This document shows positions 885-34,309 of a stretch of 64,000 nucleotides of DNA, piece by piece. The DNA is from a virus (taxonomy: Duplodnaviria; Caudoviricetes). The stretch lies in IMG/VR virus record IMGVR_UViG_3300034157_000065, positions 96,001-160,000 of that record; one strand, given 5' to 3'. A model generated the notes under the pieces. That model did not search any database and was not told where the DNA came from. It was given only the letters and a program-made list of their open reading frames with translations. The translations under genes were made by a program, and so were the position numbers. Within the stretch, counting starts at the first letter, position 1; every line of letters begins with the position of its first letter.

Positions 885-1259
885 ATGAAAATTGCACACA
901 TTGTCATTCAAGAAGCGGTCACTCATTTTTTGGCTAACCAACCAATCAACAAGCTGATCACTCAATTGTTTCGTGGTGGCCGACAAGTTCAGGATAGTTT
1001 TGAGCCGGTCAAACATTTTTCTTTCATGAAATATGAAGACGGCGTGGGTACCATGCGTATTCATTTGACCAATGCTCTTCCACGTATTCTTGATAGCATT
1101 GAGACAAGAGAAGACATGGACACTACTTTTACGATTTCTGTAAAAGGTTTGGAAGCCGAAATTGTTGTAAGCTATGATAAACCTTCGATGTGGTTCAACA
1201 TCACCTCGAAGACATTTGATAATCTTTTTGCATTGGCCGGGGAGCGGTCAAAGGAGTAA
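885..1259 (+). CDS. Hypothetical protein
   Basis: ORF after TGnTATAAT promoter. Confidence 0.7.
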   Translation: MKIAHIVIQEAVTHFLANQPINKLITQLFRGGRQVQDSFEPVKHFSFMKYEDGVGTMRIHLTNALPRILDSIETREDMDTTFTISVKGLEAEIVVSYDKPSMWFNITSKTFDNLFALAGERSKE

Positions 1260-7412: not shown

Positions 7413-8567
7413 ATGAATCTTTTTCCAAACATCGAACACATCAATGATATTTTGCCAGCTTTGGCAGGTAAAACCTATATCGGTGTGAACAAGCAATCTA
7501 ACGGTGCAACCGTTCTTTGCTACAACATCAGCAACGGTGAATCCTTTGCTACGCCTTTTGAAAAAGAATGCCGTGGTATCACCTTTGACCGTGATGGTAA
7601 AATTGTAAACCGTCCTTTGCACAAGTTTTTCAACTTGGCAGAGCGTGAAGAAGTATTGCCACACAACATTAACTGGGATGATGTGGTTGCTGTCTTCGAT
7701 AAGATGGATGGTTCCATGATTACTGCTGGTGTGTTTCATGGAGATGTTTTTGTAAAATCCAAAAAGTCTTTTGAATCTGATGTGGCTGTGTCGGCTTTGG
7801 CGTATGTTAAAGCAAACCAGAAATACGAAGATTTTATTAAGCATTGTGCATCCTTGGATTTGACACCAATCTTTGAATACACTTCGCCAAACAACCGTAT
7901 CGTGTTGCGTTACGATGAAGAAAAAATGACGTTGTTGCATGTGCGTCATACCATTACTGGTGCTTATTTTATGCCAGATGAAGTCGCAGCTTTGGCAAAA
8001 GAGTTTGATATTCCAGTTAACGTTCCATTGTTTGGTAAAGGTTTCGACTTGAAAGCATTGTTGCATTCGTTGGATACTGTAGAAGGGATTGAAGGTTACG
8101 TTATTCAGTTCTCTAACGGTAATATGGTTAAGGTAAAAACGACTTGGTATGTTAACTTACACCACGCAGTAACATTCGTGCGTATTCGTGACATTGCTCG
8201 CTTGGTTTTATCCGAGAAAATTGACGACTACATTGCATTTGTTGCATTACATGCAAAAGACGCTGATTTGACTCACATCCATTACATCAATGATACGATT
8301 AAAGCAGAAATTGAAGGCATTAAGAAAGACGTTGCAGATATTTTGGCTCAGCATGAAGGTGTTGATTTCAAAACCTTGGCAACCACTTACTTGGGTCATC
8401 CATATTTCTCTTTCATCATGACTACCGCTCGCGGTAAAGAAGTTGATTACTTGGATTACTATGAACGCAACCGTTTGAAAGAAGTCTGGTCTTTGGAGCA
8501 AGTTGACTTGGGCAACTTCACAGGGATTGATGATTCTGATGATGAAGTTCCCGTAGACGAAGATTAA
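7413..8567 (+). CDS. rnlA: RNA ligase, T4 Rnl1-like
   Basis: ECRGITFD, RPLHKFFN, motif I DKMDGS, FEYTSPNNRIV, EGYV, VKVKTTWY. Confidence 0.9.
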   Translation: MNLFPNIEHINDILPALAGKTYIGVNKQSNGATVLCYNISNGESFATPFEKECRGITFDRDGKIVNRPLHKFFNLAEREEVLPHNINWDDVVAVFDKMDGSMITAGVFHGDVFVKSKKSFESDVAVSALAYVKANQKYEDFIKHCASLDLTPIFEYTSPNNRIVLRYDEEKMTLLHVRHTITGAYFMPDEVAALAKEFDIPVNVPLFGKGFDLKALLHSLDTVEGIEGYVIQFSNGNMVKVKTTWYVNLHHAVTFVRIRDIARLVLSEKIDDYIAFVALHAKDADLTHIHYINDTIKAEIEGIKKDVADILAQHEGVDFKTLATTYLGHPYFSFIMTTARGKEVDYLDYYERNRLKEVWSLEQVDLGNFTGIDDSDDEVPVDED

Positions 8568-31896: not shown

Positions 31897-32021
31897 GCGG
31901 GTGTGTGAGTATAATAGGAGAGTTGGCCTTCCGTCCTTTGAAATATAAGGTTGCTCTACCGTTAAGGCGTGAGTGCCTTGCTACATCGGTAACGTAGGTT
32001 CAAGTCCTACCATCTGCACCA
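31897..32021 (+). ncRNA. Enlarged (125 nt) tRNA-like RNA ending in ACCA
   Basis: GCGGGTG/CATCTGC acceptor, T-arm GTAGG-TTCAAGT-CCTAC, ACCA; interior has two non-canonical stems instead of D and anticodon arms. Confidence 0.7.
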
Positions 32022-32159: not shown

Positions 32160-32233
32160 CGGTGAAACGCTCAAATGGTGAGCAAATGGTGTTGTAACCA
32201 TACTCGTGGGTTCAAGTCCTACTTCACCGGCCA
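32160..32233 (+). tRNA. Atypical or pseudo-tRNA, anticodon undetermined (Asn-like G73)
   Basis: CGGTGAA/TTCACCG, D-arm GCTC/GAGC, T-arm GTGGG-TTCAAGT-CCTAC, GCCA; anticodon loop is 6 or 8 nt, never 7. Confidence 0.7.
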
Positions 32234-32286
32234 AATTGCTTGATTGTTGTGATGACTTGTGGTATAATCATCCCATCAAATGAATT

Positions 32287-32517
32287 CGGAGCCTTCGCCA
32301 TAGAGGGTTGGATAGCAGCGGTGTCGCGGGCAAGCTATCACGAAAGGTGAGAATCAACTCCCTTTCATAGTAATGAAGTGCATCAGAGCTGAGTTTTGCT
32401 CTTGATTAAAACGCTTGGGTGAAGCGGCCTTTATTACGAACTTGATTGTCAATTAGCGAAGGAATTATAGTCCTAGTGGCTATGATTAAAACGGTTAGGT
32501 GGACTGGCCTTCGTTAA
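32287..32517 (+). ncRNA. Unassigned structured RNA, copy 1 (two tandem three-way-junction modules)
   Basis: Homologous to 32582-32735 with compensatory changes; upstream TGGTATAAT. Confidence 0.75.
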
Positions 32518-32581
32518 GACCAAATTAAAAGATTGTTATTTACAGGTGGTTGATGTATAATAGCGGTCAGTTAAACGAATA

Positions 32582-32735
32582 CGGAGCAGCAGTTAAATGT
32601 TGCTGAATGGTAGCGGTGGTCGGGCGAGCCATTGTAAGAAGGAGAGGTGATTTCTTAGTCCCTCTCTTAGCAATAAGAGCATTGAGGGTGCTGTTTTCCT
32701 CGATTAAAACGGTTGGGCGAACCGGCTCTTGTTGC
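32582..32735 (+). ncRNA. Unassigned structured RNA, copy 2
   Basis: Same conserved loops (CGGAGC, AGCGGTG..CGGGCRA, GATTAAAACG, GGGYG) with covarying stems; upstream TATAAT. Confidence 0.75.
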
Positions 32736-32798
32736 AAACCCTATTCCAAAGAGTTGTCGATGACAGCTTTTTTCTTTTTAACAGTGATGGAGAGTGTC

Positions 32799-33011
32799 AT
32801 GATTGAGAATAACGAATTTGCAACTGAGTATGCTGGTCAGCTTGTTTTTTATATGACTGCTGAACAACGCCAAGCTGTCTTTGCTCATATTGAAACGTTG
32901 TTTGATAAAGACGCCATTGCTTGTATGAAGGCTGATGCTCAGCAGATTGTTGAAATGCGTGCAGATATGGATCGTCGTCTTGCGGAAATGGACGCAAAAA
33001 CCGCAGTATAA
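32799..33011 (+). CDS. Hypothetical protein (70 aa)
   Basis: GGAG RBS before ATG 32799; the longer upstream start overlaps the ncRNA. Confidence 0.65.
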   Translation: MIENNEFATEYAGQLVFYMTAEQRQAVFAHIETLFDKDAIACMKADAQQIVEMRADMDRRLAEMDAKTAV

Positions 33012-33026
33012 GCTACACCTTTTTAT

Positions 33027-33100
33027 TGCCGAATAATCTAGATGAATCAGGTAACTGTGTAATCTATGATGTCGTAGGCTAGATCCTACTTCGGCGGCCA
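33027..33100 (+). ncRNA. Degenerate tRNA-like element (74 nt, GCCA end)
   Basis: TGCCGAA/TTCGGCG acceptor, D-stem ATCT/AGGT, GTAGG/CCTAC T-stem with abnormal loop CTAGAT; no proper anticodon stem. Confidence 0.55.
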
Positions 33101-33103
33101 GAT

Positions 33104-33216
33104 TTGCTGTAGGCTCTTGTAGCCTGTCCGACCGGGTTGTGACCGGGCAGAACCAGACGGTTCCCGCTTTCGGGTGGAGTCGATAAGGCATAGGTAATCG
33201 GTTCCTATTGCAGCAA
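33104..33216 (+). ncRNA. Multibranch structured RNA of unknown family
   Basis: Closing stem TTGCTGTA/TGCAGCAA; inner CGAC/GTCG enclosing three hairpins, one with UUCG loop; ATAGG/CCTAT hairpin. Confidence 0.6.
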
Positions 33217-33676: not shown

Positions 33677-34309
33677 TTACATTTTAAATTTTCTCTTGTT
33701 TTCACTTTTTGGCTTTGGTGTCTCTCTGTTGGCTAACAGGTTAATCCACTGAGTGTCTTCCCGGCCTTGTTTATCAGCCCCATGATACAATTTCACGTCA
33801 CCAAACAATTTCGAATCTTCAAGTATTTTTGATAATTCTGGTATGGTGTAGTAGCTGAAAAATCTTCCTTTTGGATCACTTGATTCACCTTCACCACTTT
33901 TGAAGCTGGCATAAATCTTTCCACCTTCCTTCATACTGTCAGCAATTTTCAATAATGTAGTTTTTAATTCTTCTTTGTTCAAATGAAGTAACGAAGCCAT
34001 ACACCACACACCATCAAATTCACCCTTCCAGTTTATTTCTGAGAAGTCTTTGTGTTCAACCTTTACACCAGAATTGCTTTTTGCTATTTCAACTAGTTCT
34101 TTGGAAGCATCCATGCCTTGCACATTGAAGCCAAGATTTTTGAAAGCAATTAAATCACGTCCTGAACCGCAACCCGCATCTAAGATCTTTGCATCAGCAG
34201 GCATATTCTTGGTAAATTCCTTGTGCAGATCGGATATGTCCAAGTTGATAGTGCTTTGAGCATACTCATCAGCATTCTTATTGTAGTAATCTATTGTCTC
34301 TTTATTCAT
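33677..34309 (-). CDS. Class I SAM-dependent methyltransferase
   Basis: ILDAGCGSGRD, GMDAS, FDGVWCMASLLHL. Confidence 0.9.
   Translation of the reverse strand: MNKETIDYYNKNADEYAQSTINLDISDLHKEFTKNMPADAKILDAGCGSGRDLIAFKNLGFNVQGMDASKELVEIAKSNSGVKVEHKDFSEINWKGEFDGVWCMASLLHLNKEELKTTLLKIADSMKEGGKIYASFKSGEGESSDPKGRFFSYYTIPELSKILEDSKLFGDVKLYHGADKQGREDTQWINLLANRETPKPKSENKRKFKM

Follow-up and report, generated by a model that had tools for sequence, protein, structure and literature searches.

We wondered what is encoded by two similar segments that lie side by side, among tRNA-like genes, in the genome of an uncultured giant phage. They occupy positions 32276-32780 (+ strand) of the window, by which we mean the whole 64,000-nt stretch analysed here; it corresponds to bases 96001-160000 of the 192.8-kb IMG/VR virus record IMGVR_UViG_3300034157_000065, which has a G+C content of ~35%. 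The original prediction for this site, made from the letters of the window, proposed a duplicated, covarying structured RNA of no recognised family in which a three-way-junction (3WJ) module is present three times. Our analysis identifies two adjacent and paralogous structured RNAs, RNA-A and RNA-B. They are separately promoted, strand-specific and constrained in structure, each of them combines a head with one or two junction modules, and their family resides in the tRNA islands of giant phages. We tentatively take them for stable RNAs that act in trans.

RNA-A (~255 nt, 32276-32530) is preceded by a promoter at 32240-32268 (TTGATT, 17 nt, TG-TATAAT, with the TATAAT at 32263-68) that matches the consensus at 10 of 12 positions and has an extended -10 TG. 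Its head consists of two hairpins, H1 (32290-32309; 7 bp and a GYNAWA loop) and H2 (32311-32339; a 6-bp stem, an A / RA internal loop, invariant G-C and C-G pairs and the G-rich loop GGUGUCGCGG). A third hairpin, H3 (32342-32366), has a bulged U and the word AGGUGA and is an optional module. Two three-way junctions follow, the first at 32370-32437 (helices P1 and P2, the linker UAAAA and helix P3 with a GGGUG loop) and the second at 32453-32517, and the whole is closed by a helix termed P0. RNA-B (~200 nt including its terminator, 32569-32780) starts behind a promoter at 32533-32561 (TTGTTA, 17 nt, TATAAT at 32556-61), again with 10 of 12 consensus matches. It has the same order of parts with a single junction: a head at 32585-32633 (H1 32585-32604; H2 32606-32633, loop GGUGGUCGG), an H3 at 32640-32668 with the same bulged U and AGGUGA, and a junction at 32670-32735, closed by P0. 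Behind it lies an intrinsic terminator (32748-32780, + strand), an 11-bp stem followed by a T-run, which is kept in the related loci L002, L005 and L006. The elements on which the original prediction had been built were all recovered: two TATAAT boxes, each with a -35 box 17 nt upstream, and CGGAGC with its hairpin; the stem gatagc/gctatc in copy 1 and aatggt/gccatt in copy 2 around AGCGGTG..CGGGCRA; the hairpin formed by gaaagg/cctttc and by gagagg/cctctc; and three junction modules with the invariant linker GATTAAAAC and a 5-bp P3.

Several lines of evidence indicate that these helices are maintained by selection on structure. Minimum-energy folds of the three pieces match the helices described, with z-scores of -2.5, -4.9 and -3.5 against dinucleotide shuffles, the latter two values belonging to RNA-B and to the second junction of RNA-A. 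Within the window, a 25-nt pattern that represents the core of the junction occurs three times versus 0.00 occurrences expected. To assess covariation, 22 distinct sequences of the junction and 16 of the head were drawn from relatives. In the 3WJ, standard pairs were present in 85% of 484 cells, compared to 29-50% when the 3' partners were slid by 1-3 columns; changes on both sides were seen in 17 of the 22 pairs, and none of 500 shuffles reached the observed values. The head, that is H1 and H2 together, was paired in 240/240 cells with both-sided changes in 11 of its 15 pairs, five of seven in H1 (100% of cells paired) and six of eight in H2. Both sequence sets confirm the earlier claim that stems covary while loops stay fixed.

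About 35 unpaired or helix-end nucleotides remain constant while the stems drift by compensatory change. They comprise a 5' GG, the H1 loop GYNAWA, the UAAAA linker and, in P3, the two initial pairs and the loop GGGYG. At the apex of H2 an A, a G-C and a C-G pair, a G-rich loop of 8-10 nt and a following RA are fixed; the loop itself is invariant or nearly so and follows the consensus GGYG..GRGG flanked by A / RA. The sequence and length of P2 differ among relatives and its loop L2 is variable, whereas its start and end are fixed (AUY...GAU), so that the junction consensus reads AUY..GAU-UAAAA-CG. The complete 3WJ module, with the invariant GAUUAAAAC and the GGGYG loop, measures 65 nt, of which ~20 are invariant, and its linkers are 0, 5 and 1 nt long. 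G-U pairs fill 53 cells in the 3WJ and 34 in the head and would become A-C mismatches if read on the opposite strand; together with the promoters they fix the + strand as the transcribed one. Homologues differ by indels that are not a multiple of three and by the loss of a whole H3. Since indels are out of frame and whole modules are gained or lost, the segments are not coding sequence.

The two ends of each RNA can be joined by P0. The 5' part contains a conserved word, GAAUNNGG, whose complement on the 3' side, CCNNAUUY, is conserved as well; next to GG/CC there is always a 1x1 mismatch. In RNA-A the two strands (both on the + strand of the window) are 32282-32289 (GAAUUCGG) and 32520-32527 (CCAAAUUA), with six of eight positions pairing; in RNA-B they are 32577-32584 (GAAUACGG) and 32739-32746 (CCCUAUUC), with seven of eight. 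P0 is formed in the minimum-energy folds of RNA-B and of several homologues, and an RNAalifold consensus recovers its GG/CC part unprompted. Pairing reaches 78% in register versus 19-56% when slid, and between lineages one U-A to A-U and one G-C to G-U exchange is seen. Because the helix is short and AU-rich, we rate it as probable and not as proven. With P0, each RNA would be a closed four- or five-way junction with the arm order P0, H1, H2, optional H3 and 3WJ; copies from a 437-kb relative that are without H3 would be plain four-way junctions.

The position of P0 also bears on the junction at 32453-32517, which had been proposed as a free-standing third unit. In RNAs of the copy-1 type the 3' motif RACC-N-AAUU (GACC-N-AAUU) is found behind the second junction and not behind the first. 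This junction therefore belongs to RNA-A as its second junction. What holds of the predicted modular phage ncRNA (non-coding RNA) is that it is duplicated, modular, covarying and part of a giant-phage genome; the third junction as a separate copy has to be given up. The units (~32276-32530 and ~32569-32780) are slightly wider than the proposed extent, 32287-32735.

Relatives and modular composition

How widespread are such RNAs? A covariance model of the junction (R1), as the original prediction had suggested, and a second one of the head (R2) were built. The junction model scored the members of the family at 45-89 bits. In the window it gave 72-88 bits for the three junctions (72.4, 72.6 and 87.6 bits in their order along the strand), and the head model gave 77-84 bits for the two heads (77.2 bits in RNA-B). 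The 25-nt pattern found four closely related phage contigs (L002, L004, L005 and L006) as well as a divergent 437-kb contig, 98% complete, with four copies. Further members came from metagenome and genome collections: L206 on a 112-kb contig, L207 on a 177-kb contig, L214 and L216. L211 is identical to one of the copies of the 437-kb contig, and L220 is a lone junction on a contig binned with a metagenome-assembled genome of Flavobacteriaceae. L209 and L217 share the metagenome contig Ga0308158_10000001 of 1,859,102 bp. This contig holds an RNA-A/RNA-B pair like that of the window and a copy like the c copy of the 437-kb phage, and L217 is surrounded only by small open reading frames (ORFs), as is seen in phage accessory regions. 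The 'provirus' records may be pieces of something much larger, or the 1.86-Mb contig may be a chimaeric assembly.

Looser DNA patterns brought up more than 200 IMG/VR loci which, apart from contigs already known, were rejected as chance matches by both models. The junction model had no match in Ralstonia phage RsoM2USA, Xanthomonas phage XacN1 or Agrobacterium phage Atu_ph07, nor in 150 other Flavobacteriaceae genomes. BLAST against 50,697 phage records gave no match, and the RNA ligase encoded in the window, used as a query for more distant phages, returned only the four close relatives. The family is present in approximately ten giant-phage contigs, always among tRNA or tRNA-like genes and with two to four copies per genome. 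It is real but narrow and confined to a lineage of giant (~200-440 kb) uncultured phages.

Comparison of the members reveals how the RNAs are put together. The head model matches only directly upstream of junctions, and a head never occurs without a 3WJ. The 3WJ is solitary in L007 and L220 and doubled in RNA-A. H3 is absent from copies a and b of L003, and unrelated hairpins take its place in L207 and L217; in the second RNA of L206, P3 has decayed. As the junction stands alone or doubled in some members, while H3 is optional and the head is never junction-free, the junction looks like the essential module.

Genomic neighbourhood

Every full-length copy is served by a separate sigma-70-type promoter, located 8-25 nt upstream. 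Terminators follow 1-3 nt past P0 in RNA-B and L216, and a few nt past P1 in the lone 3WJ of L007. What comes next differs from locus to locus. In the window, L002 and L005 the terminator is followed by a small conserved ORF without a promoter of its own; in L006 RNA-B and its terminator are the same, and a tRNA-like sequence comes next in place of the ORF. In L207 and copy b of L003 a tRNA starts within 3-8 nt, and in the 437-kb phage and L214 another conserved non-coding stretch of ~300 nt follows. No protein gene is a constant neighbour across the loci. The ~300-nt stretch stands behind copies of the c type (L192 1580-1895 in the 437-kb phage; L214 ~900-1240, minus strand), shares the blocks AGTGGAGCGAT and CTGACCTT.GAAGCGATGAC, ends in a terminator in L192 and has no Rfam match. 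The stretch could be an RNA in its own right, or else it could form the body of a larger RNA that has the family described here as its 5' domain. The loci L003 and L220 carry 7-8 tRNA genes each, including one with an amber-suppressor anticodon. In these arrays (L220 3096-3171; L003 7866-7941) the tRNA with the CTA anticodon lies two genes past the lone junction, and one tRNA has an 8-nt anticodon loop.

The window itself contains many small ORFs, and RNA-A and RNA-B lie in a G+C-richer island (41%) together with several tRNA-like genes. In one of these (31897-32021), which weakly matches the tRNA-like domain of tmRNA, an 86-nt insert is surrounded by an acceptor stem, a T-arm and an encoded CCA. 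Another (32160-32230) is scored at 34 bits by the Rfam tRNA model and is missed by ARAGORN, and a third (33027-33100), recognised by eye, has a T-arm and a GCCA end. The conserved 70-aa ORF (32799-33011, + strand) is without a Pfam family. It has the Shine-Dalgarno sequence GGAGAG and starts 27 nt past the RNA-B terminator. As it is without a recognisable promoter of its own, it could be expressed only via read-through of that terminator. Further away, the window encodes a T4 Rnl1-type RNA ligase (7413-8567, + strand; Pfam E 1e-31), by which the 344-kb Ralstonia jumbo phage RsoM2USA is the nearest cultured relative (44% identity), and a SAM-dependent methyltransferase (33677-34309, - strand) with a weak PHROG match to tRNA methyltransferases. 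The two enzymes suggest that the phage invests in the repair or modification of tRNAs. Pairing is possible between the G-rich H2 loops of both RNAs and the GC-rich RNA at ~33104-33216 (RNAduplex, -16 to -18 kcal/mol at 33110-33150); this may be a chance effect of G+C content and we do not rely on it.

Possible functions and rival explanations

What might the phage gain from these RNAs? The original prediction had offered a protein sponge or decoy, a ligand-binding RNA or a new ribozyme as conceivable roles. The reading that we favour, with some reserve, is that RNA-A and RNA-B are two paralogous genes for stable, trans-acting structured ncRNAs that serve as scaffold or decoy and represent an undescribed giant-phage family. 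That they are discrete genes is suggested by the promoter of each full-length copy, by the terminators near the ends and by the adjoining tRNAs. Action in trans rather than in cis is suggested by the changing downstream element, which can be an ORF, a tRNA, another RNA or a terminator. The RNAs would act as discrete stable molecules, released either by a terminator or by an RNase P cut at the following tRNA. The 3WJ would be the working module, and its invariant junction and G-rich hairpin would form the surface to which a shared partner binds. This partner would most likely be a protein, or possibly a pyrimidine-rich RNA, and the H2 loop may assist in binding. Since there is no complementary conserved single strand within the RNA, the G-rich loops would have to contact something outside. 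The presence of two to four copies per genome would raise the number of binding sites, which would fit a scaffold or decoy, and the constant placement beside tRNAs or tRNA mimics may point to a partner in tRNA metabolism, in translation or in a tRNA-directed host defence.

Several points weigh against this proposal. Discrete, stable transcripts are deduced from sequence signals only. RNA-A has no terminator behind it and is followed by the next promoter instead, and P0 is a short, AU-rich helix with few covarying positions behind it. No gene for an RNA-binding protein is a conserved neighbour. The effective number of independent sequences is small (3.3-4.7) because all known members come from a few related phages. 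Lastly, transcription of the ORF at 32799, which is without a promoter of its own, has to come from the RNA-B promoter, and a cis-acting leader would fit this arrangement as well.

Such a leader would head operons of untranslated RNA genes, either as a riboswitch or attenuator acting on the terminator at 32748-32772, or as a put-like processive antiterminator through the tRNA arrays, with which RNA polymerase would read through the terminators and Rho sites in them. Indeed, every copy stands right after a promoter as the first element of a transcription unit, RNA-B is followed by a terminator and, 27 nt on, by the conserved promoterless ORF with its Shine-Dalgarno sequence, and tRNAs follow the RNA in L003, L207 and L220. 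We nevertheless consider a cis-acting role unlikely. The downstream element is not conserved, a tRNA-like sequence replacing the ORF in L006; RNA-A has no terminator to control; and by inspection no antiterminator pairing of the 3' strands of P0 or P1 with the terminator is kept among the window, L216 and L007. The conserved loops are moreover spread beyond the junction, unlike those of a typical small-molecule aptamer, and the variable L2 leaves no purine-riboswitch-like loop-loop lock. The tRNA setting could also mean that the RNAs are tRNA-derived mimics, decoys for a tRNA-binding enzyme or a tRNA-cleaving defence nuclease. They are always found in tRNA arrays, beside RNAs with true T-arms and CCA ends, in a phage that has a tRNA-repair ligase of the T4 Rnl1 type. 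The architecture is suggestive as well: copies a and b of L003 are four-way junctions, H3 sits at the place of a class II variable arm, and the 3' strand of P3 continues into that of P1 as a T stem does into the acceptor stem. Against this stand the negative results of the Rfam tRNA and tmRNA models and of ARAGORN in standard mode, the lack of a 7-nt T-loop, of an anticodon-like loop and of an encoded CCA, stem lengths unlike those of tRNA, and the lack of Ro/TROVE and of a CCA-adding enzyme in five phage records, and we give a tRNA origin a small chance.

An RNA-based counter-defence, in which the element would mimic a CRISPR repeat (an RNA anti-CRISPR) or the antitoxin RNA of a type III system, appears most unlikely to us. 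ToxI repeats begin with AGGUGAUUU, a word contained in H3, and several copies per genome, each with a strong promoter, would suit a decoy of this kind. The P2 hairpin together with GAUUAAAAC also resembles the repeat end of Cas13a, GGGGACUAAAAC, a string that we confirmed in the Cas13a literature. However, the likeness of GAUUAAAAC to that repeat end (GACUAAAAC) is confined to an A-rich word of 6-8 nt. Repeat mimics preserve the repeat in full, whereas P2 is variable in both sequence and length; the conservation of P3 and its loop is at odds with a 'spacer' position, and H3 is dispensable. A literature search gave no CRISPR repeat ending in GATTAAAAC, and in the two top CRISPR papers the word lies inside spacers. 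A self-cleaving or otherwise catalytic RNA that processes tRNA-array transcripts is highly improbable. It would account for the ~20 invariant nucleotides around a three-way junction and for the adjoining tRNAs, yet no Rfam ribozyme family matches, linkers of 0, 5 and 1 nt misfit the hammerhead, whose core (CUGANGA, GAAA, UH) is absent by inspection, no double pseudoknot is evident, and the module lies upstream of the tRNAs and not at their 3' ends. Next to no weight can be given to the view that there is no RNA at all and that the segments are a chance repeat, a mobile repeat element or minus-strand terminators. P3 with TTTTAATC does score as a minus-strand terminator, but compensatory changes occur in five helices, 87 G-U cells pair on the + strand only, the promoters lie on the + strand, and copies within the same genome differ in their stems, unlike young mobile repeats. 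Covariation and strand asymmetry together refute this view. Some of the alternatives overlap with the proposal of stable trans-acting RNAs as special cases of it.

A bolder reading, possible but rather doubtful, is that the 3WJ represents a new functional class of RNA to which the head is accessory, and that it manages the arrays of untranslated RNA genes in giant phages or disarms a host system aimed at tRNAs. A decoy for a tRNA-directed defence nuclease, an antitermination element directed at polymerase or Rho, and a new aptamer or ribozyme would be examples of such a class. It is still debated why giant phages have large tRNA arrays and translation-related genes, and their tRNA islands also hold unnamed RNAs. 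The present family is a compact case, with a 65-nt module, clear covariation and natural variants with one, two and zero heads. Its consensus sigma-70 promoters should work in E. coli, and the module is easy to synthesise and test. If its partner were a component of host defence or tRNA handling, the family would represent a new RNA-based way of taking over or protecting the translation apparatus; otherwise it would still be a solid new family for RNA databases.

Comparison with known RNAs

Rfam 15 (4227 models) gave no match on 32270-32780, neither at gathering thresholds nor at E<=10, in agreement with the prediction that no recognised family is present. Among the homologues, no match on the element was obtained at gathering thresholds, nor at E<=1 in five relative loci. 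Word searches of the literature returned no described equivalent; the family may be among the 10,006 candidate viral structured RNAs that were catalogued in 2023 (PMC10690425). Some of the resemblances considered concern short words. An anti-Shine-Dalgarno sponge could be imagined from GGUG, AGGUGA and GGGUG and was rejected by inspection, as H3 is dispensable and GGGCG variants break the match. A CsrA sponge was dismissed because GGA is not in the conserved hairpin loops. A resemblance to the Alu domain of the signal recognition particle (SRP; GGUAGCGGUG) was not backed by an Rfam SRP match.

With tRNA, the tRNA-like domain of tmRNA and Y RNAs of the YrlA type, the RNAs share an end-to-end closing helix, a cloverleaf-like arm order and the genomic association with tRNAs. 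The order P0, H1, H2, (H3) and 3WJ corresponds to the acceptor, D, anticodon, variable and T arms of a tRNA. Unlike these RNAs, they have no T-loop, D-loop, anticodon loop or CCA. A tRNA identity was rejected on the silence of the Rfam tRNA and tmRNA models on every copy (E<=10 in the window, E<=1 in the relatives), and ARAGORN called 0 genes in 9 sequences in standard mode and only sporadic, inconsistent ones in its -mt and relaxed modes. TROVE/Ro (PF05731) was not found in five phage records, one of them 98% complete, whereas control genomes were positive, and a CCA-adding enzyme was not found in the same number of records. Without a Ro gene in these records and without a T-arm, the RNAs are not counted as Y RNAs. 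The double T-loop dock for the tRNA elbow, known from the apex of T-box Stem I, RNase P and the L1 stalk, is also linked to tRNA, and the L1 stalk likewise consists of three helices (76-78; PMC3664808). It was rejected because the pentads AG..A / UG..A (PMC3664808) cannot be placed in UAAAA or the P3 loop.

Among phage RNAs, the family differs from the pRNA of phi29 in the type of phage and in genome location, and has no Rfam match to it. The phi29 pRNA (RF00044) likewise has a promoter of its own; its 5' and 3' ends pair with each other, and a three-way junction at its centre presents loops for intermolecular contacts. The two conserved loops of the present family are both G-rich and unable to pair with each other. 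GOLLD (RF01998) and ROOL (RF03087) are structured RNAs of phages and prophages that are often encoded beside tRNA genes. They are three to five times larger, whereas the RNAs described here are assembled from small reusable modules and are without an Rfam match. A further likeness is to species 1 and 2 of phage T4 (rnaC and rnaD), small stable RNAs from a tRNA cluster which are co-transcribed with tRNAs or lie beside them. The design of the three tRNA-like genes that flank RNA-A and RNA-B resembles that of rnaC. In contrast, rnaC ends in a tRNA-type T-arm and acceptor stem, of which the present family has neither, and both T4 RNAs are without the 3WJ module and the head. Homology was rejected, as neither rnaC nor rnaD was matched by the junction model, which was run on the T4 tRNA region with filters off and reached at best 12 bits (E 0.13) at another place in the locus. 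Neither Rfam 15 nor the searched literature contains the family. It joins T4 species 1 and 2, GOLLD and ROOL as an RNA that phages encode beside their tRNA genes, and is homologous to none of them.

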